From the NCBI GenBank assembly GCA_948857205.1, contig CAQPRV010000041.1, positions 9,313-73,312 on the forward strand: a stretch of DNA of 64,000 bases, given 5' to 3'. Position numbers and translations under genes: made by a program. Below, piece by piece: positions 23,190 to 64,000 of the stretch (its first letter is position 1; every line of letters begins with the position of its first letter). This stretch comes from an uncultured Clostridia bacterium (GTDB lineage: Bacteria; Bacillota; Clostridia; TANB77; CAG-508). Under the pieces are notes generated by a model. It searched no databases, had not been told where the DNA came from, and worked only from the letters and a program-made list of their open reading frames with translations.

Positions 23190-23196
23190 TAAAAAT

Positions 23197-23232: not shown

Positions 23233-23377
23233 ATTTATATTACATTACAGTTGTATTACAGGCATATTAAAAATATATTATTTTGTCTTTTTTTGCTCAA
23301 AAATGTTACAATTATTGAGCTTTTTTGTTATAATTAAATATAAGAAGAGTTATACAAAAAAATAAGGAGGAATAAAA

Positions 23378-26886: not shown

Positions 26887-26896
26887 GGAGGAAAAA

Positions 26897-29800: not shown

Positions 29801-29956
29801 GGAGCACAAAGACCAGCTGGAACAGGTGGAAATACACAACCAACAGGATCACAAAATCCAACAGGAGCAAATAGAAATGGAAATCCAGCAGGGACATCAA
29901 CATCTCAACCAAATGGAGGAGCACCAACTGGCTCTAATGGAACGTCAGCAGAATAA
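26897..29956 (+). CDS. VirB6/ConG/TcpH-like polytopic membrane protein with long acidic + Gly/Thr/Gln/Arg-rich disordered C-terminal tail
   Basis: 1019 aa; multiple TM segments in residues ~170-390; acidic block DSDDEDNNNDGNDNDDYGMDYY…; C-terminal tandem peptide repeats NENGGTSxSGTQRPTGTRGRxRGSG encoded by an 89-90-bp direct repeat (29631 / 29720). Confidence 0.6.
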   Translation: MKFFTRNGIIHKIIISVSIVLVTIFSVPQRSYGGFAEALGSTLLKELLQLVSVAGDIAMGLLNSVMLGTDGVGSAMLPKDDVNLKSGSGSWLYLSNKLANSDYDYVFEPGRINTKAFKGTEYEIPNMLYSPENIFANKIAALDVNFLRRNEYQEVTGSKSAIEKSRSAAGKLSNIISSWYKSFRNIAIVGLLSVLIYLGIRITISSTAVDKAKYKENMNNWFVALCLVFVIHFIMSGILMLTDKVTEIFDTEINNGIKIKESGENIAFKTNLTGLVRFRAQSSDVQEVAAYTVVYVALVFYTYRFTFLYFKRFLYMAFFTMIAPLVALTYPIDKMGDGQAQAFNLWFKEYTMNAIIQPVHLILYTVFVTSSAELAQENVIYALVAIGFLIPAEKFIKSMFKLDKASTPSGLGSFAGGALAMQGLNKLGSLMGGGHKKGGSSNGDDSGSSDSSDRRIRMQERPTLGSFGGDSDDEDNNNDGNDNDDYGMDYYQHDGQDDGEGDDYDDSDIDMIDPPIEEPEPYFEGQDEMDRLGEELDQYDNNDIYMNPELGAKQMRYQELDAQKRQWQEDQERQNEEQMEDQEEEQGQAQLNVPPRGYDPAIGEEQNPEPEEDSDINADQGPQELPGWKKKLAIKGAKSLAKGTWKATKGITKFGLSTAGTVAGATIGFGAGIATGEGVFKAAQYAATGGAFGRSLGKNVGGLVDKLPNNPYRSAKNAKNKIIDKKNDIREMINEQKYGTGYARQQRAIENNELAKKDFMNNKKEKSKYQDMAARIYNNTGKSYSAKDLMNASYDYQQAGITDEDDIERGLTLEANHGGINGDYHQKTVDVMDFARSQSVKKDSITDEKKRTALEGVVQSKVRGTSNQLEVMNSLAEAYGLGDYYKKVGKIGKPATPPQQTSQTGAQGQAGSNENGGTSRSGTQRPTGTRGRSRGSGTQRPTGSNENGGTSGSGTQRPTGTRGRPRGSGAQRPAGTGGNTQPTGSQNPTGANRNGNPAGTSTSQPNGGAPTGSNGTSAE

Positions 29957-29976
29957 TAAGAAAGAGGGCAGAAACC

Positions 29977-40464: not shown

Positions 40465-40543
40465 GTTTTTTAGTTAACACTTTTTAGTTATGCAAAAATA
40501 AAAAATAATTATATTTTTTGTGTATAAAAAAAGTAGTAAGGAA

Positions 40544-40571
40544 TTGCCAAAATTCTCCGTCCCTAATGGCA
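40544..40571. repeat. palindromic unit type 2 inverted (TTGCCAAAATTCTCCGTCCCTAATGGCA), right end of second MITE-like element
   Basis: ~40 nt upstream of patatin-2 GTG; 79-bp spacer to left unit. Confidence 0.6.
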
Positions 40572-40612
40572 CGATTTCTGTTTTTTTTCATATTTTATTA
40601 TGGGTGATTTAT

Positions 40613-41470
40613 GTGAAAAAGGGATTGTGCCTAGCAGGTGGAGGAGTAAAGGGAGCTGCTCATATAGGAGCTATTAAAGCTTTGGAGGAGGAAAATATTA
40701 AGTTTGATTATATTGGTGGAACGTCTTCTGGTAGTATTGTTTCTTGTTTATATGCAGTTGGATATAGTGCAGATGAGATGTATGATATTTTTAAAAAGTA
40801 TTGCAAAAAGATTAAATATGTTGATTTTATGCAGATAGTACGACTTATTGTAGGTCTTATTTTTACTGGTAAAATTAGAATTGAAGGATTAAATTCTGGT
40901 AAGCAAATTGAAAAGTTGATTGATAAGGTGTGTAGAGATAAGAAAATTTTTAATATATCTGATATTAAAATGCCTTTAGTTATACCAAGCGTTGATTTAT
41001 GTAATGGTAATGTTATTTGTTTTACTTCTTGTAAAAATAGAAATGATATTTCTGATGATATTAAATTTGAAAATGATATTAGTATAGGTAGGGCAGTAAG
41101 AGGAAGTTGTAGCTATCCTGTTGTTTTTTGCCCTTGTAAGTTTAATGATACAAAGTTAATTGATGGAGGAGTAAGGGAGAATGTTCCTTGGAAAGAGTTA
41201 AAGATGTTGGGTGCTGATTTTGTACTAAATATTATTTTTGATGATGAGAAAAATTTAGATTGTAGTAAAAATTTGGTTGAAATTGCTAGTCGTTCTTTGA
41301 ATTTAATTGGTAGAGAGTTGTCTAATTATGAACTTAATGGTTCAGATTATAATGTTAAGATTAAGAGTGATAAGGTGGGACTTTTGGATATGAATAGAAT
41401 AGATGAACTTTTTGAATTAGGCTATAACCAGATGAAACAGGAGATTAGTATTATTAAAAGTTTTTTGTGA
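40613..41470 (+). CDS. patatin-like phospholipase, copy 2 (paralog of 37104-37962)
   Basis: Same motifs (GLCLAGGGVKGAAHIG, GTSSGS, DGGVREN); ~90% aa identity to copy 1 by eye; GTG start. Confidence 0.85.
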   Translation: MKKGLCLAGGGVKGAAHIGAIKALEEENIKFDYIGGTSSGSIVSCLYAVGYSADEMYDIFKKYCKKIKYVDFMQIVRLIVGLIFTGKIRIEGLNSGKQIEKLIDKVCRDKKIFNISDIKMPLVIPSVDLCNGNVICFTSCKNRNDISDDIKFENDISIGRAVRGSCSYPVVFCPCKFNDTKLIDGGVRENVPWKELKMLGADFVLNIIFDDEKNLDCSKNLVEIASRSLNLIGRELSNYELNGSDYNVKIKSDKVGLLDMNRIDELFELGYNQMKQEISIIKSFL

Positions 41471-41600
41471 GTTCATTTCTAAATTGTCCACGCACATTAG
41501 ATCCAATTACTAATATGTTTTCTTTATCATCAATTGCTATGAAATGACGATTATCAGCTGATATTTTTTGTATTGTACCACCAATTCTATTTACGTATTT
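41462..41600 (-). pseudogene. remnant of an RCC1-repeat blade (no start codon)
   Basis: Minus-strand translation KYVNRIGGTIQKISADNRHFIAIDDKENILVIGSNVRGQFRNELTKNF* resembles the last blade of the adjacent gene (…QKISVGRHYFIAIDEEEKVWVCGLNTKNGMLGND…). Confidence 0.4.
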
Positions 41601-41631
41601 AGAAAAATTATATATTTGAGTGTAATATAAA

Positions 41632-41656
41632 ACAGAGGTCTCAGAAAAGCCTCTGT
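41632..41656. terminator. bidirectional hairpin (ACAGAGG-tctcagaaaag-CCTCTGT) between patatin-2 and FGE/RCC1-2
   Basis: 7-bp GC-containing stem, flanked by A/T runs. Confidence 0.5.
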
Positions 41657-41672
41657 TCTAAATATTTTATTG

Positions 41673-43712
41673 TCAATTAATATTTATCTTAATTGGTGTT
41701 GTCACTTCTTTGGTAGAGTCATTTCCTAACATTCCATTTTTTGTATTAAGACCACATACCCATACTTTTTCTTCTTCATCGATTGCTATAAAATAATGTC
41801 TTCCAACTGAAATTTTTTGTATTTTTTTTCCAATTGGAATTGAGATTGGTTTTATTGCTACTGGTGTTACGTTCTTATCAGTTCCTAATTGAGAGTATTT
41901 ATTTTCTCCCCATCCCCATAAAAATCCATTTGTATCTATTGCCATAGCAGTATATCCATGGGCAGAGATATCTTTAAATTTTTTATCTGGTGCAATTTGT
42001 TTTAGTTCAGTAACATTTTCAGATGTAGTATCGCCAATTCCTAATCTGCCTTTGTAATTAGAACCACAACCCCAAAGGTAACCATTCGTATCAATTGCAA
42101 AACTATTTTGTTGTCCTGCTGCAATTTTTTTAAATTTATTTGTTGTTTTTGTTACTTTTGTTGGAGTTTTCACTGAAGAAGTATTACCAGTACATAATTT
42201 ATTGTGAAAACCACTTCCCCAAGTGTAAAGATTATCATCTTTATCTAAAGCCATATTATAAAAATTACTGGCCGAGATTTCTTTAAATATAATATTAGAC
42301 GTGATTTTTGTTGGAGTTTTCACTGAAGAAGTATTACCAGTACCTAATCTGTAGTCAGCGCCAGAGCCCCATGCCCATAGATTACCATCTAAATCAATTG
42401 CTAAACAATGACTTTGCCCAGCTGATACTTTCTGGAATTTTACGTCAGTATTATTTAATTTAACAGTAATTTTTTGAAGAGAGGTTACTTTTGTAGTATT
42501 GCCAGTACCCAATTGACCAGAACCATTGCTTCCCCATGTATATAAAAACCCATCTACATCAATACCAACTGAAAAGCCACCATTAGAATCAGTACTTTTT
42601 GCGAGACCTCTTGAAAGTGAAATTTCTTTAAATTTTATCCTTGCATTTATATGTTTAGGCATTTTTTGAAGTGTAGTAGTACCATCTCCAAGTTCGCCAT
42701 TAGAATTTTTTCCCCACATCCATAGAGTTTTATTTTTATCAAGATAAGCAGTATGATTTGATCCACCAGCTACTACTAATGTTGTTTCAGGTATAGGATC
42801 AATATAATTAACATCTCTATATAATAAAACCCTAAAACCAGTATAAGAAAAAGTACTATTTGGTTTAGCATGATCTCTAGTACCAGCAGGTAAAACAGAA
42901 CCATTACTCAAAGCATCGCCACCTCTAACAACTGCATCATTACCATAGTTTTCAGTGGTCCACTCCCAAACATTACCAGCAATATCATAAATATTATTAG
43001 CTTTCTTTTCATCTTTACCAGCAATATGAATACTTCCATCAGAAGAATTTCTATAATTTCCCCAAGAGCTACTATCAGAATCAACATTATAATTTTTAGT
43101 TTTTAACCAAGTAAGCATAGTATCATAAGCATACGAACTTGCAAGAGAACTAATTACTTCTTTATTACTTTGATACATTTTTGTTGCACTAGCTTTGGCA
43201 TTATCCCTACTAATATTTGTCCATACAGTAGCATTTTTTTTACAAACAGGAACTCCAGCATTATTACCACTAGTAGAACCAACACCAGCTTCATACCTAC
43301 CAACATAAAATCCACCATATGTAGTTACACTAACATTAAAAGAAGGTTCTAATGGATCTTCTTGTGTAGAATTTGGATTAATAATAGAAAAGCTTTTAGA
43401 AAAGTTGCTTCTTTTTAGTTTAATATTATTACCATCTACAGGAACCCAAACAAATTCATTACCAGTAGCAGTTTCTTTAATAACAAATCCAGTATTCCAA
43501 GAGCCTTCAGTATGCATAAATCCTATAGGGGTATATGGATTATCATAAGAATACCCATTAGTTGCTTTTGCAATTTCTACAGTATTATTATTTTGTAGAG
43601 TTTGTGTACTAACAATTGTAAATATAATTGAACTTAATAATAAAATAGAAATAATAAGAATACTTACAATTATATATTTTAGTTTTCTTTTGTTTTTGAA
43701 AAAATTTAGCAT
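41673..43712 (-). CDS. signal-anchored FGE-sulfatase-domain + RCC1-repeat protein, copy 2
   Basis: Start at MLNFFKNKRKLKYIIVSI… (ATG 43710-43712, RBS AAAGGAGAA). Same FGE motifs (GNVWEWTTENYGNDAVVRGGDALSNGS…GFRVLLYRD). The RCC1 repeats are more diverged from copy 1 than the FGE part. Confidence 0.8.
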   Translation of the reverse strand: MLNFFKNKRKLKYIIVSILIISILLLSSIIFTIVSTQTLQNNNTVEIAKATNGYSYDNPYTPIGFMHTEGSWNTGFVIKETATGNEFVWVPVDGNNIKLKRSNFSKSFSIINPNSTQEDPLEPSFNVSVTTYGGFYVGRYEAGVGSTSGNNAGVPVCKKNATVWTNISRDNAKASATKMYQSNKEVISSLASSYAYDTMLTWLKTKNYNVDSDSSSWGNYRNSSDGSIHIAGKDEKKANNIYDIAGNVWEWTTENYGNDAVVRGGDALSNGSVLPAGTRDHAKPNSTFSYTGFRVLLYRDVNYIDPIPETTLVVAGGSNHTAYLDKNKTLWMWGKNSNGELGDGTTTLQKMPKHINARIKFKEISLSRGLAKSTDSNGGFSVGIDVDGFLYTWGSNGSGQLGTGNTTKVTSLQKITVKLNNTDVKFQKVSAGQSHCLAIDLDGNLWAWGSGADYRLGTGNTSSVKTPTKITSNIIFKEISASNFYNMALDKDDNLYTWGSGFHNKLCTGNTSSVKTPTKVTKTTNKFKKIAAGQQNSFAIDTNGYLWGCGSNYKGRLGIGDTTSENVTELKQIAPDKKFKDISAHGYTAMAIDTNGFLWGWGENKYSQLGTDKNVTPVAIKPISIPIGKKIQKISVGRHYFIAIDEEEKVWVCGLNTKNGMLGNDSTKEVTTPIKININ

Positions 43713-43851
43713 AAGTTTCTCCTTTAAATATATTAATATTATGTACAAAAATTGTATAAAAAAGTCATCTTTAAAAATATAACAACAGAATAACATAATT
43801 TCCCAAAAAATACAAGAGTTTATCATTTAAATTGTGTTAAAAAAACTTGTG

Positions 43852-43878
43852 GTCAGTGGGGACGGAGAAATTTGGCAA
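43852..43878. repeat. palindromic unit type 2 (GTCAGTGGGGACGGAGAAATTTGGCAA)
   Basis: ~140 nt upstream of FGE/RCC1-2 start on minus strand; paired with a type-1 unit 114 bp away (hybrid element). Confidence 0.55.
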
Positions 43879-43992
43879 TTATTAATCAGAATATGAAGTT
43901 ATTAGATATTAGTATTAATAAGAATAGATAAAGTTGTTAATACCATTTCAATATAAAAAAGTAATGTAAAAAAGTAAAAAATCAACAAGAAT

Positions 43993-44023
43993 CATGATTT
44001 TTTCCTCCGTCCCCAAAATCATG
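43993..44023. repeat. palindromic unit type 1 (CATGATTTT-TTCCTCCGTCCCC-AAAATCATG), perfect 9-bp stems
   Basis: Identical loop to 16251 copy; ~245 nt upstream of giant adhesin start. Confidence 0.6.
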
Positions 44024-44267
44024 TTGTCCCTAACAGTTGATATACAATATTAATGAAATATTACAGAAATATTATATAAACTTAAAATAATTGAAATATG
44101 AAAAAGAGACAAAATTCCGTAAAGGATTTTATCTCTTTTTGTCGTTAATTGTTTAAATTGGAAATTTAATATATTGTAAACATTTGTAGAACATTGTAAG
44201 ATTTATTTAGAATTTTTAGTAAGTAAAATATATATTTAAATTTAAAAGTCTAGAAGGAGAAATAACG

Positions 44268-47200
44268 ATGAAGAAAAAAGCATTTCTAATTTTTACAATA
44301 GTATTATTGGTTACGTTCTTATTAATCAGTACAACATACAGTGATACAACAACAAGAGGAATTATAAGAATTAAAGAAGATGGAACTGAACAAGTAATTG
44401 AAGATAGTTCTATTAAAGTGCACCAAACTATAAAAAGGGTTTCAGATAAAAAGATTACATTTAAGATGGAAGTTGAGAATTTACAATATAAGTCAACAGA
44501 AGTTGCTATAATGTTAGATAACTCTTTTTCTATGTGGAGTGAAAGTAAAATAACTACATATAAAGCAAAACTAGTAGATTTAGTAAATGCAATTTATGCT
44601 AAAGTACCTGATGCATATATGTCTGTATCTAGCTATAGTGGTAACATTAAAGCAATGACAAACAATAAACAGGAAGTTATTAATGCAATAAATAGTGTTA
44701 CTAGTTATACTGGTATTAATAGTGCTACAGGTCTAACAGATGCAAAGAGTTCTTTTACAGGAAAAGCAGGAAATGAATATATATTAGCTTTTACAGATAC
44801 AGAAGAACATACAGATGCAAAAAATGTTGTTGAAGAAACACAAAATGATACAAGTAGACATATGGTAGTAGTTATTATGGGAGAAGGTTCAACAAAACAA
44901 ACAGAATATAGTCAAGTAAAAAATACAAAAGTATATAAAATTGATAATATGTCAACATATAACTTCTCTACATTAAATACGAGTGTATCAAATTCTATAT
45001 CTTCAGCAGTAACAAAAGAATTAAACAATATTACAATAAATGGAGTTTTTGCAAATCAATTACAAGAAATTTTTACAACTGAAATTAAAACACAACCTTC
45101 TAAAGGACAATTGATTCTTTCAGCTAATGATTACAATTTAACAATACCTCAAATGACAACTACAAAAGTAAGTTTTGAGTTATCAATGACTTTAAAAGAT
45201 GAAATAGAAAGAGACTACATGGGAAGTGTTATAAATTTATTAAGTTCAACTTCTATTAAATATGATAATAATAGACAAGAAGCAAAAACATTAAATAACA
45301 CAACTACAACACCAGTAATAGATATAGTAGAATGTTATACATTAGAAATTACTGCAATAAATAAGGAATTTCAGGAGATAAAGGTAAACGAAGTAGAATG
45401 TAACATTATACAAAAAGATGCATCTGGAAATGTAGTTGCTACATATGAAAATAAGAAAACAAATAGCAAAGGACAAATAGTATTAGAAGATTTATCATAT
45501 ACTGGTGAAAGTACAATTGAAATAGTATTTTTATCAACTTCAGGTCCATATGAAAGTAAAGAACCTGAAACTATTAAGATAAATAAAGATCCAATAACAG
45601 GAGCGATTACTGTAATAGATTCTACATTATTAGTGCCAGAGGGAGAAGATGTTCAAGTAAGCAATGTAGAAAAGATAATATCAGCAAAAGTAGCAATATC
45701 ACCAAAGGCGATAGTATTTAACGTACATAAAATTGACGAAGAAACAGGATTACCATTACAAGGAGCAAAATTTGAATTAAAACAACCACATACTAGTGAT
45801 ATTCCAGCAGATTCAATAATTTCTGGAACAACAAATGAACAAGGAAATGTTAGTTTATCAGGAGAAGTAGCAGGAGTTACACAATCAACAGTAGATGCAA
45901 GTGGAACAAGTCATCCATATTATTATACATATGTACTTAATGAAGTAGAGATGCCAACAGGTTATGTAGATGAACATACTAGAACTGTTGTAATGATACA
46001 TTTTTCACCAGAAGGAGAAATAACAGGCTCATACATTTCTACAAACAGTGCAAATGCAAAATTAAGTGTAGATAATGATGTACTAAATTTAGAAATATCA
46101 AATAAAAAGAAATATTATACATTAAATATTAATGCAATAGATAAAGAATATAACAAAATACCAGTAGTTGGAGCAGAATTTACTGTAACAGGAGTAAATG
46201 AAAGTGGAGTACAAGTTTGTAACAAAAAAGGAACAACAAATAAAGATGGAGAGTTACAAATAGAAATAAACTGTGAAGGAAAAGTTACATATACAATATC
46301 ACAAACTAAAGAACATGCAGCATATGAAAATGCAAGTGATATACAATATGTATTAACAAGAGACTTTGCAACAAATGAAATAACACTACACAACGAAGTA
46401 GAAAATATTTCAGTAGATACAGAAGGAAGAATTGTAACAGCAACAATACCATTAATGCCAAAGAAATTTGAACTTAAAGTAAATAAAAAAGACCTAGATG
46501 AAAATATACCAGTAGAAGGTGTAGAACTAGAATTTGTACAACCAGGAATAAGAGATAATTATACATTAACAAGTGGTGAAAATGGAATTTTAAGCTATAC
46601 TGGAAATGTTGTATGTAATGTTGATGGAGGAAAATCTACATACTATTTAGATGAAACACAAAAAGCAGTAGGTTATAAAGAAATAAAAGGTAATATGGCA
46701 ATTAATATTACTTTTGATGAACATGGAAATATAACAGAGGTAGAAGAAAATTCAGTTCATATAGAAAATGTAATAAAAGAAAGTAAAAAAGTTGAATTAG
46801 ACTTATTAAATGAACAACAAGAATATACAGTAGAACTATATGCAAAACATAAAAATTATAAAGAGATTCCAATAAAAGGCGTAGACTTTGCATTAAATGG
46901 TACTACAGTAGAAGGAGGAGTACATTTTTATCAACAAGACTCTTTAGTAACTGATGTATCTGGTAAGGCAACATCAGACATTATAAAGAGATCAGGAGAC
47001 TTATATTACACTATTACAACAAATAGTGTTCCATTAGGATACAAAAAAGCTGAAGATAAAACAATAAAGGTAAATAAAAACTTAAAAACAGAAAACTTAA
47101 CATTATTAGAGAATAAAAATGAAGATGTAAATGTAACAATAGACAATATAAATAAAATTGTAAAAGTTACAGTATATTTTGAACCTGACACATTTACATT

Positions 47201-50200
47201 ACAAATAAACAAAAAAGATATAGGACTTTCAGATATATTAATAGGAAATGCACAATTTAAAGTCGAACAACCAAAAATCAAATATATTAATAGCTCAAAT
47301 ACAGAAGCTACAAAGAGTAGAGATAGTGTTTCTGGGGTTACTCAAGATAATGAAGTTCTAGAATTGCAATTAGAAAGACCTGTTATGGCAGGATTTAATG
47401 ATAGAACATTTACATACACTTTAAAAGAAATAGCAGTACCAAGTGGTTATATAAATACAAAATTTGAGTTAAACTTTGATTTAACATTTAATGATGAAGG
47501 ACAATTACAAAGTATAACTAATACAAATGAGACATCACAACCTGCTACGAAAGGTGAGATAACAGAAAGCAAGGATGACTTAACTAATGAAGAAGCAAGC
47601 TATTTTAAAGGTGGTAATGTACAAGATGGTAAATTAGTACTAACAATAGGAAATGAGCAAAAAGGAGCAACATTAAAAGTACATGCATTAGATGGAAAAT
47701 ATGGAAGAAGATATAATGTAAATGTAAAACAAGGTGTAACAATACAAGTAGTTGCAAGAGACTCAAATGGAAACGAATTCTATAGAAAGAATTTAGTAAC
47801 AGATGAAAACGGTATGATAGAACTTGTAGGAATATCACAAGCAGGAGATTTCTCAATCGAACTAACAGCAGTAAAAGCAAAAGCAGGATATTTACCAGGA
47901 AGTACTAAAACAGTAAATTTACATAGGGATATATTAAGTACAGAGATTACATTAAGAGAAAGTGATTCAGATACAAATATAAATAATACTGCTAAAGTAA
48001 TAGAAACAAAAATGTTTATTGATGTACAAACATATGACATTGAAATTACAAAATTTGAAAAACTATATGGAGATACACTTATAGAAAATGCCAAATTTAC
48101 AATAATACAACCAGATATAGGAGCATTTAATAGAGATAAAAAACAAGGAACAACAGTAAAAGGTGAAAAATTAGTACTTTCTCCAGAAGTAGCAGGAGAA
48201 GGAACATATGAATATAGAATAGTTGAAAGTGCACAAAATGGATATATTAACCAAGATATTAATACAACATTAAAAGTAACTTTTGATAAAGATGGAAACA
48301 TACAAAATGTAGAAAAAGGAACAGATGACAAAACTGTTAATAATGAGTCAGTTGTAACATTAGGTGAGCATACAAATAATAAAATACCATTAACAATAAT
48401 GAATGAACAAATGCCATACAAAATAAAAATATTAGCAGTAGATGCCAAATATTCTAGAACATCTCCAACATATCACATGGTTCCAGTAAAAGACTTAAAA
48501 GTAAGAATAACAGGAACAACAACAGAAGGACAAATTTATAATGCAGAAAAAACAACAACAGAAGAAGGAATAATAGAAAGTGATGACTTATTAAAAAGAG
48601 GAGATGTTGACTATACAATAGAGCAAATAGGAATTCCAGCAGGATATCATAAAGGAGAAAATACATATTTAAAAATTAATAAAGATTGGGATACAACAGA
48701 AATTTCATTAAGAGAAAATGTAGCACATGTATCAATTGATAATAATAATAAAGTAATAAATGTAACATTATGGCTACAACCAAAGACATTTGAAATTGAT
48801 TTTAGTAAAGTTGATAAAATAGAAAATGATATAAAAGTTGGAAAGGCAAAATTCTTATTTAAACAACCAGCTTTTGAAATAGGAGGAGCAAGAAATTCTT
48901 CTGAAAAAATATCATCAAAAGATAAAAATTTAGTATTTACAGGAGAAGTAGCAGGAGAAGGAACTTATACATATACATTAGAAGAAACAGAAACTCCAAA
49001 AGGTTATATAAAACTAGCTCCAAAAACAAATTTATTAATAACATTTGATTCAGAAGGAGTTATTACAAATGTAACTAAAGAAGAAGAAAATGAATTTGTA
49101 AAAATAGGTAATGTAGTAGATAATGTAATACCTGTACAAATCTCAAATGAAAAGAAAGTACATTCATTAAAAATAGTAGCAATGAATGAAGAATATAATA
49201 GTGCAAAAGCAGAAGGTGTACATGTAAAACTAGTTAGAAAAGATGGTCAACCTTTAGGAACAGATGAAGAAGAAAATCCAATAATGGAAAGAAAAGGAAT
49301 AACTGATGCTAATGGAATTGTTATATTTAAAGACCTAGAAGGTAGTGGAGATATTGCATATGAAATAATACAAGAAGAACCAAGACCTGCGGCATTCTAT
49401 TTAGGAGAAAGCAAAACAGTACAAGTAAATATAAATGAATCAACAAATGATATTGTAAATAGAACAATAGATGAAGTAACTAAAGTAGATAATAGTATAC
49501 GTCAAATAAGCACAAATATTTACTTAACACCAAAGAAATTTACAATTACATTAAATAAAATTGACTATGATAATAAAAACTTAATTGGTACAGCATTTAT
49601 TAATTATAAAGAAGCTAAATGGTTAAGACATTTATCAGGTAGAACTGTAGATAATGAAAAATATGTTGTTACAGGATATGTACCAGGAGAAGGAACATAT
49701 AACTATACATTAGAAGAAGGTTATTGGAAACAAGATGTACCAGGTGGACATGGAATTCCAAAAGGATATAAAAATTACTTAAATACTCATAAATTAGATA
49801 TTACATTTGATGAAAATGGAGATATACAAGAATCAAATTTACAAGAATCTACATGGTTTAAAGTATTTTGGGATGATGCTAGAAAACTAAATTATATAAA
49901 GACATATGATGACTTAAAATATCATACAATGGATTTACTAAAGACTACAACTGAAGATATTGAACTAAAATTAACAAATGTTAAAAAACAATTTAGATTT
50001 AATATGGACGTAATTAATAGTAAATACAAAAATGAAAAGGTAGAAAGAGTTCAATTTAGAATAAAAGCATATAATGAAGCGGGAAATGAGATATATAATC
50101 AAATAAATGAAACAGATGAAAATGGACAGATATCAATAGGAGATGAAGATTTCTATAGAGTTACTGGAAAAATAACATTTACAATAGAATGTTTAAATGC

Positions 50201-53200
50201 TCCAAGTATGTTTAAACAAATGCCAATAGCTACAGTAGTAATAAATAGAGCAGAACACCCAGATCAAAAAATTACAGTAGACCAAGTTAGCACATCATCA
50301 CATGTAAATGTAAAAGCTAAAGTAGTTGTAGATCCAGTTAACACATCAGACTTTTCATACAATGTAAATGTTGAAGTGCCATTACAACAAAAAACTTTTG
50401 ATATGGAATTAACAAAAGTAAGTGCAATAAATGATAAAGTATTACTAAAAGGAGCTACATTTACATTAACACAACCAGATGGAAAACATACACAACAAGT
50501 AACATCTGATGAAAACGGAAAATTATTATTCTCAGCAGATTTATATGGAGAAAATACAGAATATGCATATATACTAACAGAAAATAATGCACCAACAGGA
50601 TATCAACATGTTGGAACAGATGGAGTTATTCGTGTAACTGCTGAAGATGAAGATGTAAGAGAAGTTAGAGTTACACAAGGGGAAACATATATAGTAGATG
50701 AAAAAGTAGAAAACACTAAAAAAGTAACTGCTAAAGTAAATAATACACCAGAAGGTTCATTATATAATGTTAAACTAATTGAAAAATATGGAAATAAAAG
50801 AGTAGAAGGTTCAAAATACAATATTTTAATAGATGCAACAGTTGGTGAACAAATAAATGTAACAGATTATACAGATGCTAAAGGAACAATAGAAATAAAT
50901 CAAATTCCTGGAGAGGGAGAAATTGTAATAAAAGTTAACGAATTAGAAAATGCACCAGGATATCAATTAATTTCAGGAGAAAAAATTGCAGTTGTTGAAA
51001 AAAATGAAGGAAGTTTAAAAGTAATAAACGAAAAAACATCTGAAGATATCAATGTAAGTATCGACAAAGAAACAAAAACAATTATTATTGAACTTGTTAC
51101 AATACCAACTATACGCAAAAATAAAATTGAATTTGAAGTTGTAGACAAAAATGACGAAGACATAAAAATACAAGGTACTTCATTAAACATATTGCCACCA
51201 AAAGCAACAGAAGTTCTTTATAGAACAACAAATGGAGCAGGATATACAAGCATAGATGATCCAGCAGTTCCAGGAGAAGGAGCATTTGATTATTCAATAG
51301 CAGTAACAGAAGTACCAAGCACATATTATGACTTTATGGATGCTATAAAAGTAAAAATAGAATATGACGATGAAGGAAATATACAAGACATTTGGAAGAT
51401 AGACGAAACAGAAATAAGTGACAGTGTTTCAGTTTTATATGATGTAGATAATACAGATACAAAAACTACATATAGAGCTAAAATTATAATTAAATTAGAT
51501 GCAAAGATAAATTATAATTTAAATATAGAAGCACAAGAAAAAGACAAACCAGAGATAAAAATACAAGGAGCAAAATTTGAAATAAAATCAGTAGTTAACA
51601 ATAGCTATATTTCAACATCAACAAAGAAAACTGGAAAAGATGGAACAATAAAAACAAAACAAGCAGGAGGAGAAACTGTAGCAATTTACTTAAAAGAAAT
51701 AGAGACTGCAAAACCATATGTATTAGATAAAAGCCTTAAAAAGTTAGTGTTAAATAAAAATGGTGACACATTTGATATAAATACAGCAGAAACTACAGAA
51801 GGATTGTTAGCAGAGATCTTAGAAGATGGAACAGTAAAAATTACTATAGAAAATGAACTAAAAGGAGCAAATATAAACTTCCAATTATTAAAAGTAGATT
51901 CAGAAAATGAAGCAATAAGACTAGAAGGAGTAACATTTAAATTATTAGATAAAACTAATAATAAAGAATATGAATTAGCTACAGATGAATCTGGACAAAT
52001 ATTATTAGAAGGATTTAAAGTAACAGAGCCAGGAGAATATGACTTTGTAGTAAGTGAAATATCAACAATTGAAGGATACAATTTACCAAAATTAGAAGAA
52101 GGCGAAGAAATAAGATTCAAAATTGTTTATCAAGAAGTTGATGGAATCTTACAAGTAAAAGATATTATACAAGATGGTGGAGAAAAAGTAATTACTGGTT
52201 TATCTTATACACAAACATCAACAGATACAGAATATATATTACAATTAAAATTAATTATTAATAATACAATTGATGAAAATTATAAATATAATGTGAATGT
52301 ATTTAAAAGAGATAGTGAAGATAATTCAAAATTATTAAGTGGTGCTACAATTAGAATTAAAAATACATATGTAAGTGGACACTCTGTTTCAACAACAGTA
52401 ATAACACAAGCTAGTGGAAGTGCACACTTTACAATTCCATTAGTTCCAAATGATAATACAATTGAAATTGAAGAAATATCTGCACCATTAGGATATCAAT
52501 TAGAAAATATTATAAAGAAAATTGTATTACATAAAGATGAAACAACAGGTGAAGTAACAATTGTAAGTACTGAAAATATAAGTAGTGATGATATACATGT
52601 TACAAATGGATCTATTGATATAAATATAGACAACCAAAAGAAAGAAGTTGCAACACCAAGTTATCAACTACAAATAACAAAAGTAGATAGAGAAGATGAG
52701 ACAAAAAAACTTGCAAATGCAAAATATACTGTAAAAGTTGTGTCAGATGATGGTAACTTTAATAAACAATATGATGATATTCAAACAGCTAGAGAAGGTG
52801 GAATTGCATATTTAAATGGATTAAATGGAATGGGTGAAATAACTATTACAATTACAGAAACAAATCCACCATTAGGATATATTATAGATAAAGAACCTAA
52901 AGTAATTAAAATTTCTAGAGATGCTGAAACAAATAGTATTCAAGTGACAGAAGTATCAGGTGAACATATTAATGTTGAAGTTGAAGGAACAACAATAAGT
53001 GTTAAATTATCTGATAAAATGATTAAATTACATTCTAAGATTAATAAAACAAACAGAATTACTGGAAATAGAATACCTAATATGGAATTTACAATAGCAG
53101 AAGTAATAGGTGATTCAGTATCAGAAGAAAAACAAACAATAACAACAAATGACGAAGGAGAGATTGATTTTACTTTACTTGCAGCTAACAAAGGAGAACA

Positions 53201-56200
53201 TATATATGAATTAGAAGAAAAATCATCAGAAGAATATATAAAATTAGAAAATGTTAGAATTAAAGTTATAGTAAGTGAAGATGGATCAGTAGAAAAAGTA
53301 GAAAAATTAAATACAGAAAATACAAATGTAAATGTAAAACTAGAAGATGGAAAAATCATATTAAATGTTGCAAATATACCAGTACATTGTTATAAACAAA
53401 TAGAAATTGAAAAAGTAGATTCAGAAAATGAAACTATAAAACTATCAGGAGCAATATTTAATATAGTAGGTACAGAACATACAACAGATGAAAATGGACA
53501 TACATCAAAAACAATAGATGTTGAACATGGTACAGAAAACAAAGAATATAGCATAATAGAAACAAAATCACCAATAGGATATTTAAAACATTTAGAAGAA
53601 ATAAAATTGAATATCAAATATGATGAAAATAGAAATATAACAGGTGGAGAAATAATTAGTGGAAATGAATTTACAGAAGTAGTTTCTCATACAAATGATT
53701 CAATAAAAATAAAAATTAAAGATGATAAAGTTAAAGTAAATTCAAAGATTTATAAAACAAATTATGTAACAGGAGCAAAAATAAAAGATGTTCAATTTAC
53801 AGTAGCAGAAGTTATTGATGGAGAAGTTTCAGGAGAAAAACAAACTTTAATAACAAATGATAAAGGAGAAATTGACTTTAATATATTTACACAAGAAGTA
53901 GGAGAACATATCTTTGAAATAGAAGAAGCACAAGTAGAAAATTACGAAGCAGTAGGAAAAATAAGAATAAAAGTTGTTATTAATGAAGATGGAACACTTA
54001 AATCAGTAGAAAAAATAGATGGCGCTAAATATGTATATGTTTCAGCAGTAGATGGAAAATTAGAAATTAGAGTTCCAAACAAACCAACAGGTGGATCAGA
54101 ACCAACTGATAAATATATAGAAATAGGAACAAAAATTTATAAAACAAATTATGTAACTGGAGAAGCAATTAAAGACATCGAATTTACAATAGCAGAAGTA
54201 ATAGATGGAGAAGTATCAGAGTACAAACATAAAGTAACAACAAATGACAAAGGAGAAATTGACTTTAATATACCATCACTAGGAATAGGGGAACACATCT
54301 TTGAAATAGAGGAAAAAGATACAGAAAAATATGAAAATGTAGGAAGAATAAGAATAAAAGTAGTTGTAAACGAAGATGGAACTATAGCTTCTGTAGAAAA
54401 ACTAGAAGGAGCATACCAAGTATATGTTAAATTAGTAGACGGAAAAATAGAAATAAGAGTTCCAAATAAACCAAAAGGAGACCCAGAAAACAAATATATA
54501 GAAATAGGAACAAATATTTATAAAACTGATTATGTAACAGGAGCAAAATTAAAGAACATTGAATTTACAATAGCAGAAGTAATTGATGGTACAGTATCAG
54601 AATACAAACATAAAGTAACAACAAATGAAGAAGGAGAAATTGACTTTAATATACCAGCATTAGGAGTAGGAGAACACATCTTTGAAATAGAAGAAAAAGA
54701 AACAGAGAATTATGAAACAGTAGGAAAGATAAAAATAAAAGTAGTTGTAAATGAAGATGGAACAATTGCTTCAGTAGAAAAACTTGAAGGTGCATACCAA
54801 GTATATGCTAAATTAGTAGATGGAAGAATAGAAATAAAAGTTCCAAATAAACCAAAAGACAAACCAGAAAGTAAATATGTAGAAGTTGAAACAAAGATTT
54901 ACAAAATAGATTATGTAACAGGAGCAAAATTAAAAGACATTGAATTTACAATAGCAGAAGTAATTGATGGTACAGTATCAGAATACAAACATGAATTAAA
55001 AACAAATGAAGAAGGACAAATTGATTTTAATATACCATCATTAGGAGTAGGAGAACACATCTTTGAAATAGAAGAAAAAGAGACAGACAAATATGAAACA
55101 GTAGGAAAAATAAGAATAAAAGTAGTTGTAAATGAAGATGGAACAATAGCTTCAGTAGAAAAATTTGAAGGAAGCAAATTAGTATATGCTAAATTAGTAG
55201 ATGGAAAAATAGAAATAAAAGTTCCAAATAAACCAAAAGGTGGAGAACATGTACCAGGAGGAAGCAAATATTTTGAAATAGGAACAAAATTCTATAAAAT
55301 AGATTATGTAACAGGAGCAAAAATAAAAGACGTTCAATTTACAATAGCAGAAGTAAAAGATGGTACAGTATCAGAATACAAACATGAATTAAAAACAAAT
55401 GAAGAAGGACAAATTGATTTTAATATACCAGCAGTAGGAATAGGAGAACACATCTTTGAAATAGAAGAAAAAGAAACAGAAAATTATGAAACAGTAGGAA
55501 AAATAAGAATAAAAGTAGTTGTAAATGAAGATGGAACAATTGAATCTATAGAAAAACTAGAAGGAGCAGAACAAGTATATGCATTATTAGTGGACGGAAA
55601 GATAGAAATAAAAGTTCCAAATAAACCAAAGGGTAAACCAGAAAACAAATACGTAGAAGTAGGAACAAAAATTTATAAGATAGATTATGTAACAGGTGCA
55701 AAACTAAAAAACATCGAATTTACAATAGCAGAAGTAAAAGATGGAGAAGTATCAGAATATAAACATGAATTAAAAACAAATGAAGAAGGACAAATTGATT
55801 TTGATATACCATCATTAGGAGTAGGAGAACACATCTTTGAAATAGAAGAAAAAGAAACAGATAAATATGAAACATTAGGAAAAATAAGAATAAAAGTAAT
55901 TGTAAATGAAGATGGAACAATAGCTTCAATAGAGAAACTAGAAGGAGATGAACTAGTATATACTAAATTAGTAGACGGAAAAATAGAAATAAAAGTTTCA
56001 AATAAACCAAAGGGTGGAAAAGACATTCCAGGTGGAATCAGATACATAGAAATAGGAACTAAGATTTATAAAACTGATTATGTGACAGGTGCTAAAATAA
56101 AAGATGTTCAATTTACAATAGCAGAAGTAAAAGATGGAGAAGTATCTGAATACAAACATGAGTTAACAACAAATAAATATGGTGAAATCAACTTTGATAT

Positions 56201-59200
56201 ACCAGCAGTAGGAGTAGGAGAACACATCTTTGAAATAGAAGAAAAAGAAACAGAGAATTATGAAACAGTAGGAAAAATAAGAATAAAAGTAGTTGTAAAT
56301 GAAGATGGAATAATTACATCAATACAAAAATTAAATGGAGCAGAGCAAGTATATGTATTATTAGTAGATGGAAAAATAGAATTGAGAGTTCCAAACAAGC
56401 CAAAAGATGGACCAGGAGGAAAATATGTAGAAATAGGAACAAAAATCTATAAGACAGATTATGTAACAGGAGCAAAACTAAAAAATATCGAGTTTACAAT
56501 AGCAGAAGTAAAAGATGGAGAAGTATCAGAATATAAACATGATTTAACAACAAATGAAAAAGGAGAAATCAACTTCAATATACCATCAGTAGGAGTAGGA
56601 GAACACATCTTTGAAATAGAAGAAAAAGAAACAGACAAATATGAAACAGTAGGAAAAATAAGAATAAAAGTAGTTGTAAATGAAGATGGAACAATAGCTT
56701 CAATAGAAAAACTAGAAGGAGCAGAACTAGTATATACATTATTAGTAGATGGAAAAATAGAAATAAAAGTTCCAAATAAACCAAAAGATGGACCAGGAGG
56801 AAAATATGTAGAAATAGGAACAAAAATCTATAAGACAGATTATGTAACAGGAATAAAACTAAAAGACATTGAGTTTACAATAGCAGAAGTAAAAGATGGA
56901 GTAGTATCAGAATACAAACATGAATTAACAACAAGTGAAGAAGGAGAAATTAACTTTAATATACCAGCATTAGGGGCAGGAGAACACATCTTTGAAATAG
57001 AAGAAAAAGAAGCAGACAAGTACCATACAGTAGGAAAAATAAGGATTAAAGTAGTTGTGAATGAAGATGGAACAATTGAATCTATAGAAAAACTAGAAGG
57101 AGCAGAACAAGTATATGCATTATTAGTAGGTGGAAAAATAGAAATAAAAGTTCCAAATAAGCCAAAAGATGTACCAGGAGGAAAATATGTAGACATAAGA
57201 ACAAAAATTTACAAAACAGATTATGTAACAGGAGCAAAAATAAAGAATGTTCAATTTACAATAGCAGAAGTAAAAGATGGAGAAGTATCTGAATACAAAC
57301 ATAAAATAACAACAAATGAAGAAGGAGAAATTGACTTTGATATACCAGCAGTAGGAGCAGGAGAGCACATCTTTGAAATAGAAGAAAAAGAGACAGATAA
57401 ATATGAAACAGTAGGAAAAGTAAGAATAAAAGTAGTTGTAAATGAAGATGGAACTATACAAAGTGTAGAGAAACTAGAAGGAGCAGAGCAAGTATATGCA
57501 TTATTAGTAGATGGAAAAATAGAAATAAAAGTTCCAAATAAACCAAAAGATGGACCAGAAGGCAAATATGTAGAAGTAGGAACAAAAATCTATAAGACAG
57601 ATTATGTAACAGGAGCAAAATTAAAAGACATTGAATTTACAATAGCAGAAGTGAAAGATGGAGTAGTATCAGAATATAAACACGAAATAACAACAAATGA
57701 AGAAGGAGAAATCGACTTTAATATACCATCATTAGGAGTAGGAGAACACATCTTTGAAATAGAAGAAAAAGAGTCAGAGAGTTATGAAACAGTAGGAAAA
57801 ATAAGAATAAAAGTAATTGTAAATGAAGATGGAACAATAGCTTCAATAGAAAAACTAGAAGGAAATGAACTAGTATATGTATTATTAGTAGATGGAAAAG
57901 TTGAAATAAAAGTTCCAAATAAACCAAAAGATGGACCAAAAGGAAAATATATAGAAATAGGAACAAAAATTTATAAGACAAACTATATAACTGGTGAAAG
58001 AATTAAAAATATCGAATTTACAATAGCAGAAGTAAAAGATGGAGAAGTATCAGAATACAAACATAAAGTAACAACAAATAAAGAAGGAGAAATTGACTTC
58101 AATATACCATCATTAGGAGTAGGAGAACACATCTTTGAGATAGAGGAAAAGGAGATAAATGGCTACATACCAATTGGCAAAGTAAAAATTAAAGTTATAA
58201 TAAATGAAGATGGAACAATACAAAGTGTAGAAAAATTAGATGCAGAAACTAAAAATGTAAATGTAAAACTACAAGATGGTAAATTAGTACTTAAAGTAGA
58301 AAATATCCCAGTACATAGTTATAAAAAGATAGAACTAGAGAAAGTAGATGCAGAAAATGAAGAAATTAAATTGGGAGGAGCAGTATTTACTATTGATGGT
58401 TCAAAACATACAACAGATGAAAACGGATATACATCAAAAACAATAGATGTTGAACATGGTACAGAGAATAAAGAATACAGTATAGTTGAAACAGGAGCAC
58501 CATTAGGATATCTAAAACATTTAGAAGAAATAAAATTAAATATTAATTATGACGAAAAGAGAAATATAACAGGAGGAGAAATTACATCAGGTAATGCATT
58601 TACAGAAGTAATTTCTTATACAGAAGATACAATAAAAATAAGAGTAAAAGACAATAAAATAAAAATACAATCTAAAATTTACAAAGCAAATTATGTAACA
58701 GAAGCCAGAATAAAGGACATCGAATTTACAGTAGCAGAAGTAATTGATGGTATAGTATCAGAAGATAAGCAAGAGATAAAAACAAATGACAAAGGAGAAA
58801 TTGATTTTACAATACTTACACAAACAACAGGAGAACACATCTTTGAAATAGAAGAAAAAACAACAGAAGATTATCATCCAATAGGAAAGATAAGAATAAA
58901 AGTAATTGTAAACGAAGATGGAACAATAGAATCAGTACAACAAGTGGAAGAAAATAGAAATGTAAATGTAAAACTTGAAGAAGGAAAATTAGTATTAGAA
59001 ATTATTAATATACCAATACATACTTATAAAAAGATAGAACTAGAAAAAGTAGATGCAGAAAATGAAGAAATTAAATTAGCTGGTGCGATTTTTAACATAG
59101 CAGGAGGAGAATGTATAACAGATGAAAATGGATATACATCAAAAACAATAGATGTTTCACATGGTACAAGAAATAAAGAATACAGTATAGTTGAAACAAA

Positions 59201-62200
59201 AGCACCATTAGGATATATAAGACATCTAGGAGAAATTAAACTAAATGTTAACTATGATGAAAGAAGAAATATAACAGGAGGAGAAATTACATTAGGTGAT
59301 ACATTTGCAGAAATAATATCTTACACAAATGATACAATAAAAATAAGAGTAAAAGATAATAAAATAAAAATACATTCTAAAATCTACAAAACAAACTATG
59401 TAACAGGAGAAAAATTAAAAGACATTGAATTTACAATAGCAGAAGTAGTAGATGGAGAAGTATTAGGAGAAAAACGTGAAGTAACAACAAATGAACAAGG
59501 AGAAATTGACTTTACTCTATTTACAGAAGAAGTAGGAGAGCACATCTTTGAAATAGAAGAAAAAGAGACAGAGAATTATGAAACAGTAGGAAAAATAAGA
59601 ATAAAAGTAGTTGTAAATGAAGATGGAATAATTGAATCTATAGAAAAATTAGAAGGAGCAAAACAAGTATATGTTATATTGGTAGATGGAAAAATAGAAA
59701 TAATAATTCCAAACAAACCAAAAGGACCACTTAACAAATATTTAGAAATAGGAACAAAGATATATAAAACTAATTTTATAACAGGAGAAACAATTAAAGA
59801 CATTGAATTTACAATAGCAGAAGTAAAAGATGGAATTGCGTCAGAATACAAACACAGAGTAGTAACAAATGAAGAAGGAGAAGTTAACTTTGATATACCA
59901 TCATTAGGAGTAGGAGAACATATCTTTGAAATAGAAGAAAGAGAACGTGAAGATTATTTACCAATAGGAAAAGTAAGAATAAAAGTTATAGTAAATGAAG
60001 ATGGAATAATACAAAGTGTAGAGAAACTAAGTGAAGAAAATAACAATGTAAGAGTAAAAGTACAAGATGGACAATTAGTACTAGAAATTGCAAATATCCC
60101 AGTACATAGTTATAAAAAGATAGAATTAGAAAAAGTAGATGCAGAAGATGAAGAAATAAAATTGTCAGGAGCAATATTTAATATAGCAGGAGGAGAATGT
60201 ATAACAGATGAAGATGGATATACATCAAAAACAATAGATGTAGAGCATGGAACAGAAAATAAAGAATATAGCATAAGAGAAACAGGAGCACCACTAGGAT
60301 ATTTAAAACATCTAGAAGAAATAAAATTAAATATTAATTATGACGAAAAGAGAAATATAACAGGAGGAGAAATAACAAAGGGAAATGCATTTACAGAGGT
60401 AATATCTTACACAGAAGATACAATAAAAATAAGGGTAAAAGATAACAAGATAAAAATACCTTCTAAAATTTATAAAACAAACTATGTAACAGGAGAAAAG
60501 ATTAAAGACATCGAATTTACAATAGCAGAAGTAAAAGATGGAGAAGTATCAGATGAAAAACAAACAATAAAAACAAATGAAAAAGGTGAAATTGATTTTA
60601 CTTTACTTACAGAAACAGTAGGAGAACATATCTTTGAAATAGAAGAAAAAGAAACAGAAGAATATCATGCAATAGGAAAAATAAGAATAAAAGTAGTAGT
60701 AAAAGAAGATGGAACAATAGAATCTGTACAACAAGTAGAAGAAAATAAAAATGTAAATGTAAAAGTAGAAGATGGACAATTAGTAATAGAAATTACAAAT
60801 ATACCAATACATATTTATAAAAAGATAGAACTAGTAAAAGTAGATGCAGAAGATGAAGAAATAAAATTATCTGGAGCAATATTTAATATAGCAGGAGTGG
60901 GTTGTATAACAGATAGAGATGGATATACATCTGTAACAATAGATGTTTCACATGGTACAGAAAATAAAGAATATAGCATAATAGAAACAGGAGCACCACT
61001 AGGATATTTAAAACATTTAGGTGAAATTAAATTAAATATTAATTATGATGAAAAGAGAAATATAACAGGAGGAGAAATAACAAAAGGAAATGCATTTACA
61101 GAAGTAATATCTTATACAGATGACACAATAAAAATAAAAGTAAAAGATGACAAAATAAAAATACCTTCTAAAATTTACAAAACTAATTTCATTACAGGTA
61201 ATAAAATAAAAGATATCGAATTTACAATAGCAGAAGTAAAAGATGGAGAAGTATCAGAGGAAAAACAAACAGTAAAAACAAATGATGAAGGACAAATTGA
61301 CTTTAATATATTTGCAAATAAGATAGGAGAACATATCTTTGAAATTCAAGAAAAAGAAACTGAAGACTATATTTCTATTGGAAAGATTAGAATAAAAGTT
61401 ATAGTAAATGAAGATGGAACAATAAAATCTGTAGAACAAATAGAAGGAAATAGTAAATTTGTAGAGGTAAAATTAGAAGACGGAAAAATAGTGATAAAGG
61501 CTATAAATATACCAGTTCATAGTTATAAAAAGATAGAACTAGTAAAAGTAGATGCAGAAGATGAAGAAATAAAACTACCAGGAGCAATATTCAATATAGC
61601 AGGAGGAGAATGTATAACAGATGAAAATGGATATACATCAAAAACAATAGATGTTGAACATGGAACAGAAAATAAAGAATATAGCATAAGAGAAACAGGG
61701 GCACCACTAGGATATCTAAAACACCTAGGAGAAATAAAACTAAATATTAACTATGATGAAAAGAGAAATATAACAGGAGGAGAAATAACAAAAGGAGAGG
61801 CATTTACAGAAGTAATTTCTTATACAGAAGATACAATAAAAATAAAAGTAAAAGATGACAAAATAAAAATACGTTCTAAAATTTATAAGAAAAACTTTAT
61901 AACAGATGAAAAAATGAAAGATGTAGAGTTTACAATTGCAGAAGTTGTAGATGGCGAAGTATCTGATAAAAAACAAACAATAAAAACAAATGAAGAAGGA
62001 GAAATCGACTTTACTCTATTTACAGAAAAAGTTGGAGAGCGTATCTTTGAAATAGAAGAAAAAGAAATAGAAAATTACATCCCAATAAGAAAAATAAGAA
62101 TAAAAGTTATAGTAAATGAAGATGGAACAGTAGAATCTGTAGAGCAAATGGGTGTAACAAACAAAAATGTAAATGTTAAAGTTCAAGATGGTAAGATAGT

Positions 62201-64000: not shown

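Follow-up and report, generated by a model that had tools for sequence, protein, structure and literature searches.

A very large probable fibrillar adhesin with a vWA head and a SpaA-type stalk of at least 50 domains in an uncultured gut Clostridium

Introduction

Fibrillar adhesins that combine a VWA domain with a stalk of SpaA domains are common in Firmicutes, where the surveyed stalks hold between 1 and 73 domains (Monzon et al., PMC8286594). Here we analyze an unusually large case of this known protein type, encoded by a gene that starts at position 44268 of a 64,000-nucleotide stretch of DNA (positions 9,313 to 73,312 of contig CAQPRV010000041.1, assembly GCA_948857205.1; hereafter the window) and runs off its end. 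An earlier note on this DNA, made from the letters alone, had described the product as a giant surface adhesin with a vWA head and a long array of near-identical, Cna-B-like tandem repeats. Like the surveyed Firmicute proteins, the window protein has its vWA head at the N-terminus, followed by a tandem SpaA-type stalk and, to judge from its orthologues, an LPXTG-type anchor; its domains, at least 50 in number, lie within the surveyed range. It is unlike them in that its head belongs to a tiny subfamily, its size is near the top of the range, and its stalk shows an ordered alternation of two domain classes (X and Y) followed by a lineage-specific amplification of two others (A and B).

Other described surface proteins share parts of this architecture. 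The tip adhesins SpaC of L. rhamnosus GG, RrgA of S. pneumoniae and GBS104 of S. agalactiae likewise join a vWA domain bearing a metal-ion-dependent adhesion site (MIDAS) to isopeptide-bonded CnaB domains, but they measure about 900 aa and are linked by a pilus sortase to a polymeric shaft, whereas the window protein has no pilin motif and carries its own 50-domain shaft. The TIE protein of B. anthracis (6fwv) and CD2831 of C. difficile (7k1u) are likewise monomeric adhesins, anchored to the wall by sortase and built of tandem, cross-linked CnaB-type domains of the 'ELEITKVD…E..AP.GY' kind. The head of TIE is a thioester domain and that of CD2831 binds collagen, whereas the window protein carries a vWA domain in this position, shows no sign of a thioester domain and has about ten times as many stalk domains as either. 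Finally, in periscope proteins (SasG, Rib, Sgo_0707; PMC8201768), as here, a tandem-domain rod sets the projection of an N-terminal binding domain and the number of repeats differs by lineage. Periscope arrays are, however, kept at high DNA identity, whereas the copies in the window, 77–92% identical and with a synonymous divergence (dS) of about 0.3, look like the product of an old amplification whose homogenisation has ended.

Results and discussion

A single open frame that continues beyond the window

An open reading frame (ORF) scan found 6,577 stop-free codons from the ATG at 44268 to the end of the window, preceded by an in-frame TAA at 44220. The earlier note had proposed a single polypeptide and had named a missed in-frame stop as the observation that would overturn it; none lies between the ATG and the window end. 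The DNA is 27% G+C, a composition in which chance stops are frequent, yet this frame stays open throughout and is by far the longest in the window, the runner-up having 1,215 codons. The part of the protein encoded in the window weighs 737 kDa, carries a net charge of −362 and contains only 12 Cys. As the gene is unfinished at base 64000, the full protein exceeds 6,577 residues: the gene is real but incomplete. The features of the gene and its surroundings are collected in Table 1.

Table 1. Coordinates of the adhesin gene, its parts and nearby features (window positions unless a contig is named)
Feature	Positions	Strand	Remarks
Ribosome-binding site AGAAGGAG	44252..44259	+	8 nt 5' of the ATG; read from the sequence
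Signal peptide, aa 1-25	44268..44342	+	MKKK, 17-residue hydrophobic core, TYS, predicted cut before D; sequence features
Adhesive head (predicted), aa 26-356	44343..45335	+	N-terminal beta strands, vWA domain, conserved C-terminal subdomain
vWA core, aa 79-178	44502..44801	+	Pfam VWA_2; MIDAS DxSxS D84/S86/S88 at nt 44517-44531, then T154 and T176-D177
Distal stalk, aa 357-2923	45336..53036	+	20 diverse beta-sandwich domains of 117-158 aa, strict X/Y class alternation; segmentation, Pfam SpaA
First A-B module (A2924 + B3046)	53037..53747	+	HMM matches of 164 and 182 bits
Tandem array of 12 A (11 A_L, then one A_S)	53748..58331	+	Period 381-393 bp
Mixed modules B, A-B, A-A-B, A-B, A-B, A-B, A-A-B	58332..63674	+	7 B + 8 A domains
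Start of a further Y-type SpaA domain, aa 6470-6577	63675..63998	+	Cut by the window end; the gene goes on
159-bp element with GC-rich inverted repeats (TGGGGACGGAGAAA / TTCCTCCGTCCCCA)	43857..44015		253 bp 5' of the ATG; membership of the adhesin unit uncertain
Five intergenic elements	15805-16272, 35913-36021, 36780-37046, 40444-40564, 43857-44015		Each bounded by convergent inverted motif copies
Divergent neighbour	41673..43826	-	Membrane-anchored; FGE-sulfatase-like region and RCC1-like propeller; Pfam
Neighbour homologues	L004 6856-9731, L005 6661-9753, L006 2912-8651		Same strand as the adhesin gene there, divergent in the window
HMM, hidden Markov model; L004, L005 and L006, contigs with orthologues of the adhesin gene.

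A vWA head from a very small family

The N-terminus, MKKKAFLIFTIVLLVTFLLISTTYS followed by D, is built like a Sec signal peptide, with a positively charged n-region, a hydrophobic core and a c-region of small residues, as judged by eye. The cleavage-site motif, TYS before DTTTRG, is conserved in P0001, a complete relative described below, and a similar one is present in another relative, P0002; the signal peptide recognized in the earlier note is thus borne out by both layout and conservation.

When the head was scanned on its own, Pfam VWA_2 matched it with 29.4 bits, the cutoff being 27. An exhaustive phmmer search of 1.84 billion representative proteins returned only 19 relatives of the head, all without a name, so that the head is a member of a very small subfamily lacking one. 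In the alignments of this family the MIDAS residues D84, S86 and S88 do not vary, and at least 90% of the sequences keep D177. Searched directly against the PDB with phmmer, the head found no match; the family profile later gave matches to solved vWA domains, namely those of PTMP1 (1e-13), BatB (3e-12), the fimbrial tip protein Mfa5 (3e-8), integrin alpha-E (2e-5), SpaC (2e-4) and GBS104 (1.5e-3). The DxSxS and TD motifs of the head align with those of solved vWA domains, BatB and PTMP1 included. Taken together, these alignments support a vWA/MIDAS head, and the intact MIDAS motif reported earlier is confirmed. Note that a distant head relative, P0012 (1,486 aa, on a Logan contig), apparently carries two tandem vWA modules (aa ~90–225 and ~258–542) before its SpaA stalk.

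A modular stalk of SpaA-type domains

Pfam SpaA (PF17802, clan CL0287) matched 37 stretches of the protein, and our own segmentation divides the stalk into 50 domains of 115–158 aa, the last of which is cut by the window end. The beta-sandwich character given to the repeats in the earlier note therefore stands, whereas the size of about 85–130 aa does not; similarly, 'Cna-B-like' holds at the level of the clan, since the family found is SpaA and not Cna_B itself, and the two belong to one Pfam clan (PMC8286594). In the distal stalk, domains with the class X signature 'Y.L.I.A.D.KY…' alternate with domains of class Y ('F.L.[VI]NK.D … E..AP.GY … N').

Past aa 2923, the stalk comprises 21 A domains (about 121–131 aa, IYKT[ND]YVTG…) and 8 B domains (115 aa, ELEKVDAE[ND]EEIKL…). 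The A domains come in two forms: A_S directly precedes a B, and A_L has a Pro/Gly-rich linker and precedes another A. With these forms the A/B block can be written as eight (A_L)n-A_S-B modules, n being 0, 11, 0, 1, 0, 0, 0 and 1. Tandem Repeats Finder (TRF) reports the long A array as 11.5 copies of a 381-bp period with 85% matches (53743–58150). The 12 A domains that we count there agree with the approximately 12 copies of 381 bp noted before between ~53750 and ~58200. The seven B domains downstream start at 58332, 59037, 60123, 60828, 61536, 62244 and 63330; they are spaced by 705–708 bp, or by 1,086 bp where an extra A sits between, and a previous count of about seven 705-bp units was therefore roughly right. 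The layout is near the one first described but more regular.

Conserved triads for predicted isopeptide cross-links

An alignment of di-domains was assembled from the B-A and Y-X pairs of the window protein, P0001 and a second complete relative, P0005 (44 rows), and used to model the pair B4689-A4804 with AlphaFold2 (AF2). The model has a predicted local distance difference test score (pLDDT) of 95.7 and a predicted template-modelling score of 0.85, and consists of two beta-sandwiches. Foldseek against the PDB placed the C-terminal fragment of SpaC on top (2e-11); next came the TIE protein of B. anthracis, BcpA, an ancillary pilin, major pilins of the Spy0128 type, RrgA, SpaA and the SrtB-anchored C. 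difficile adhesin CD2831. All of these are Gram-positive surface proteins, and isopeptide bonds are known from most of them. The sequence profile of the domains had its best match in 6fwv (1.4e-18) and also matched the CnaB2 domain of FbaB, from which SpyCatcher was derived. The domain search for Cna-B/SpaA folds proposed in the earlier note thus led, through both the SpaA stretches and the B-A model, to isopeptide-bonded pilin and adhesin domains.

The same note had suggested looking for a Lys…Asn/Asp pair with a catalytic Glu, and such triads were found in 39–40 of the 50 domains. In the A domains the triad K3/E57/N111 is invariant (21 of 21 copies), and so is K4/E53/D-or-N107 in the B domains (8 of 8); in the AF2 model, the Lys, Glu and Asn/Asp of both triads map to the first, central and last strands. 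The spacing of the A and B triads, ~54+54 residues, resembles that of SpaA_3 and SpaA_4 (PMC12617251). When the distal domains were aligned column by column, the triad was present in 9 of 10 Y domains and in a single X domain out of 10, X2674. The nine other X domains have no Lys, and all of them except X2416 have lost the Asn as well. This loss of Lys and Asn from class X recurs at the equivalent positions of both P0001 and P0005. The remaining Y domain, Y2286, was counted as lacking the triad, as the alignment columns give none in any of the three orthologues. Complete triads therefore amount to 39 of 50 domains, the cut terminal Y domain showing K and E only. More speculatively, and with low probability, the alternation of probably cross-linked and non-cross-linked distal domains might allow the fibre to act as a graded tether that stretches in part.

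A conserved His and Thr in the A domains suggested ester-bond cross-links of the Cpe0147 type. We rejected this candidate because the last strand of A has an invariant Asn instead of Gln and its first strand an invariant Lys.

Complete relatives end in sorting signals and have few A and B domains

Two relatives of the adhesin are complete: P0001 (3,408 aa; head 50% identical), recovered in identical form from three separate metagenome assemblies, and P0005 (3,163 aa; 32% identical), found on an 80-kb contig. Domain for domain, both run collinear with the window protein for about 3,000 residues from the N-terminus. P0001 ends with …SLPYTG-KINILGGLILVAITSTCVAYI-KYREGR and P0005 with …KIPYTG-ASYTIILLLLTGTTLATISYI-KYKNIK. 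Judged by their sequence, these ends, each with an (L/I)PxTG motif, a hydrophobic helix and a basic tail, are cell-wall sorting signals. The LPXTG-type anchor that had been predicted beyond the window is thereby supported through its collinear relatives.

The A/B content of the relatives is small: by HMM, there are 2–3 A domains and one B in P0001, two weak A-like domains in P0005 and, in the relative on contig L006, one A domain followed by other SpaA types. Counted as A/B domains per lineage, there are 29 in the window protein, 3–4 in P0001 and 1 in L006; the 29-domain A/B block is therefore a lineage-specific amplification. Lying in the C-terminal half of the visible protein, it would be wall-proximal if the protein is anchored at its C-terminus. 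Note that the L006 gene (8907–18600) is split by a frameshift into frames of 289 aa and 2,936 aa and runs off its contig, through either a sequencing error or pseudogene formation.

Other searches returned little. Word-indexed protein searches gave no match for the head or the B-A pair, and a single 211-aa fragment for the A-domain profile. No match to the A-domain profile was found in the JGI metagenomes, nor any to the non-repetitive tail in GTDB genomes or JGI metagenomes, and exact look-ups of two neighbouring proteins returned nothing. In the collections searched there was thus neither a sequence of the same species nor any relative closer than those described.

The amplified copies are old and diverged

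The repeats had been described as near-identical, with very high nucleotide identity. This is refuted by pairwise comparison: the tandem A copies are 77–92% identical in DNA and 60–87% in protein, in keeping with the 85% matches given by TRF. Seven of the B copies share 79–92% of their DNA sequence; the eighth shares only 54–60%, and the last B domain (aa 6355) is only 32–40% identical to the other B domains. Exact repeats in the gene are 72 nt long at most; 179 of them reach 30 nt or more, and just 29 reach 50 nt. By the Nei-Gojobori method, the nonsynonymous divergence (dN) and dS are 0.12 and 0.31 for the A domains (ratio 0.35–0.39) and 0.12 and 0.38 for the B domains (ratio 0.32). With a dS of about 0.3 and a dN/dS of about 0.35, the copies are therefore old, held by purifying selection and not homogenised.

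The lack of homogenisation counts against frequent unequal recombination and against assembly collapse, both of which the earlier note had drawn from the supposed identity of the copies; with 8–23% DNA difference and exact matches of at most 72 nt, these inferences are weakened. As the copies have diverged under purifying selection, the extra length appears to be a retained trait.

These data bear directly on the possibility that the protein is a periscope protein in the full sense, i.e. that its A/B arrays recombine often, so that repeat number and reach vary by strain. The architecture fits the concept (PMC8201768), with an N-terminal binding head, a tandem rod and a wall anchor; the A/B counts differ strongly between lineages, as seen above; and the 179 exact repeats could seed recombination. 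Frequent unequal crossing-over would, however, have homogenised the copies, P0001 is the same protein in three separate assemblies, and the array fails to show the highly similar DNA repeats that mark membership of the group. We therefore consider active length variation of this kind doubtful, although still the best placed of the alternatives; it would refine the interpretation as a fibrillar adhesin and not replace it.

The window protein as a probable monomeric fibrillar adhesin

With its vWA/MIDAS head, its SpaA/CnaB-type stalk and the sorting signals of its relatives, the product is probably a fibrillar adhesin that acts as a monomer and is anchored by sortase to the wall of an uncultured, low-GC Clostridium of the gut, and the adhesin interpretation of the earlier note holds up. 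The protein would be exported by Sec and attached to peptidoglycan through a C-terminal (L/I)PxTG signal like those of its complete relatives. The head would bind a ligand via the metal site of its MIDAS motif, held away from the wall by the rod of at least 50 SpaA/CnaB-type beta-sandwich domains; at ~4 nm per domain, we estimate that this rod could reach roughly 200 nm. About 40 domains with the Lys-Glu-Asn/Asp triad are predicted to form an autocatalytic isopeptide bond between their first and last strands, and such bonds would give resistance to force and proteases. The amplified A and A-B modules would have roughly doubled the length of the protein in this lineage. The product may also be, as we infer with the earlier note, a major adhesin or biofilm factor.

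Several points weigh against this interpretation. Scanned within a 2,500-aa piece instead of alone, the head reached just 25.8 bits with VWA_2, below the cutoff of 27, and the MIDAS Thr, T154, is kept in the closer relatives only. For the head, AF2 run on the single sequence gave a model with a pLDDT of 36, whose alternation of strands and helices is compatible with the fold but unreliable; because this model failed, the assignment of the vWA fold rests on the sequence profiles. The isopeptide bonds are likewise predictions, as a sequence cannot prove bond chemistry. Finally, the C-terminus lies beyond the window, so that the anchor is deduced only from orthologues at 32–50% identity, and no sortase is present among the annotated ORFs of the 44 kb upstream.

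On the proposed interpretation, the window protein would be an extreme addition to the catalogue of Gram-positive fibrillar adhesins, with a visible part of at least 737 kDa and at least 50 domains, of which ~40 are probably self-crosslinked. It leaves the current understanding of how such adhesins work unchanged. What it shows is that purifying selection can maintain a long tandem array whose copies have diverged, besides the near-identical, fast-recombining repeats of periscope proteins. The distinction between diverged and near-identical arrays matters for reading repeat-rich surface genes in metagenome assemblies. As compact domains, A and B are also candidates from which new isopeptide tag/catcher pairs might be made.

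Chromosomal context and alternative roles

The window opens in the origin region of a chromosome, with gyrB-recF-dnaN-dnaA on the minus strand and yidC-jag-mnmE-mnmG-rsmG-parA-parB on the plus strand. GC and AT skew both flip sign at about 8000–8800, between dnaA and the rnpA/yidC side, and this switch marks the chromosomal replication origin. The adhesin gene is on the leading strand, ~36 kb from the origin. The GyrB sequence shares 94% identity with that of a metagenome-assembled genome (MAG) of an uncultured gut Clostridium, 82–93% with those of MAGs from chicken, rabbit, Hadza human and ruminant guts, and 86% with that of 'Candidatus Scatovivens'. A Spore_II_R gene is found near the adhesin gene of one relative. 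On these sequence grounds, the host is a Gram-positive-type Clostridium.

A cluster resembling a type IV secretion system (T4SS) lies at 20416–35905, directly after two tRNA-Ser genes (19209–19444). Three of its proteins match TrbC/VirB2 or T4SS_pilin; the cluster also encodes PrgI, an ATPase resembling VirB4/TraG, a protein of 1,019 aa that matches T4SS_pilin, and an amidase+NlpC/P60 hydrolase of 1,211 aa. Neither a relaxase nor a coupling protein nor an integrase was recognized in the window. At the junction of the tRNA-Ser genes and the cluster there is a 103-aa ORF (19810–20121) for a HepT-like ribonuclease toxin.

The window protein might accordingly be the mating or aggregation adhesin of this cluster, comparable to PrgB of pCF10 or CnaC of pCW3: the T4SS set ends 8 kb upstream of the adhesin gene, and its ATPase is 41% identical to ones encoded on large plasmids of C. 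botulinum and C. beijerinckii. Yet five unrelated genes, on both strands, stand between the cluster and the adhesin, and the orthologues on L004, L005 and L006 have no T4SS genes within 10 kb; they sit amid housekeeping genes and nevertheless keep the RCC1/FGE-like neighbour. Moreover, megablast of the upstream 24 kb against plasmids gave no match, and tblastn of the head against 72,556 plasmids found no homologue encoded on any of them, which argues against a plasmid or conjugative origin of the adhesin; nor is there a compositional break. The gene could not be assigned to a conjugation module, its adjacency to the cluster in the window being the sole link, and we regard such a role as very unlikely.

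The structural data raise the further question of whether the protein could sit at the tip of a sortase-assembled pilus, as a pilin of the RrgA, SpaC or GBS104 kind, since the top structural match of the stalk is a SpaC fragment and the head profile matches the vWA domains of SpaC and GBS104. However, the window protein is at least seven times larger than any such pilin, its 6,577 residues contain no YPKN pilin motif, neither a backbone pilin nor a pilus-type sortase is encoded in the 44 kb upstream or beside the orthologues, and a stalk of 50 domains makes a polymeric shaft needless; a tip pilin is thus highly improbable, although the protein would function much as the vWA tip pilins SpaC and RrgA do. 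Even less credible is an artefact, be it a repeat that was wrongly assembled or collapsed or a pseudogene in decay: genes rich in repeats are easily mis-assembled, and the L006 gene is frameshift-split, but here 6,577 codons are free of stops at 27% G+C, each copy is distinct yet in frame with invariant triads and a dN/dS of ~0.35, and no exact repeat exceeds 72 nt, so that ordinary read lengths separate the copies.

A conserved neighbour and a family of inverted-repeat elements

Homologues of the divergent neighbour are found directly upstream of the adhesin gene on L004, L005 and L006, with 50–60% identity to the window copies by tblastn. The part shared by all three is the FGE-sulfatase-like region; the RCC1-like propeller is present in the window copies and in L004. 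This conserved neighbourhood suggests a possible functional link between the FGE/RCC1 gene and the adhesin.

Between the two genes of the window lies one of the five inverted-repeat elements of Table 1. The GC-rich motif that bounds them, GGGGACGGAG, occurs 10 times in the window with at most one mismatch, versus 0.13 occurrences expected. Its arms reach ~30 nt and come in two versions, (TGCCATT)GGGGACGGAGAAATTTGGCAAT and ATGATTTTGGGGACGGAGGAAAAAATCAT. The interiors of the elements, of 100–470 bp, are AT-rich and apparently unrelated to each other, and two elements fold as near-perfect long hairpins (−62 and −68 kcal/mol). Elsewhere, the motif has one copy in L006 and none in viral contigs. 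The elements are possibly similar to miniature inverted-repeat transposable elements (MITE) or REPINs, and may be an inverton family.

A more speculative proposal, which we consider improbable, is that the adhesin and its FGE/RCC1 neighbour form a two-gene surface module, conserved among uncultured gut Clostridia and not described before, in which the neighbour would act as partner, maturation factor or co-receptor and the 159-bp element as an orientation-dependent, phase-variable switch. As an invertible promoter in particular, the element at 43857–44015 was kept only at low probability. This role is poorly compatible with promoter-like matches at chance level (9 found, 7.2 expected) and with the position of one family member between convergent gene ends, where a promoter would be useless. 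No recombinase gene is present among the annotated ORFs of the window.

The neighbour also takes part in a tandem duplication. A two-gene cassette is present at 37000–40341 and again at 40520–43826, and consists of a patatin-like phospholipase gene on the plus strand and, on the minus strand, the gene for a 717-aa membrane-anchored protein with FGE-sulfatase-like and RCC1-propeller regions. Between the two copies, the RCC1 proteins are 59% identical and the patatins 87% identical, the latter with a dS of 0.32, similar to that of the adhesin repeats.

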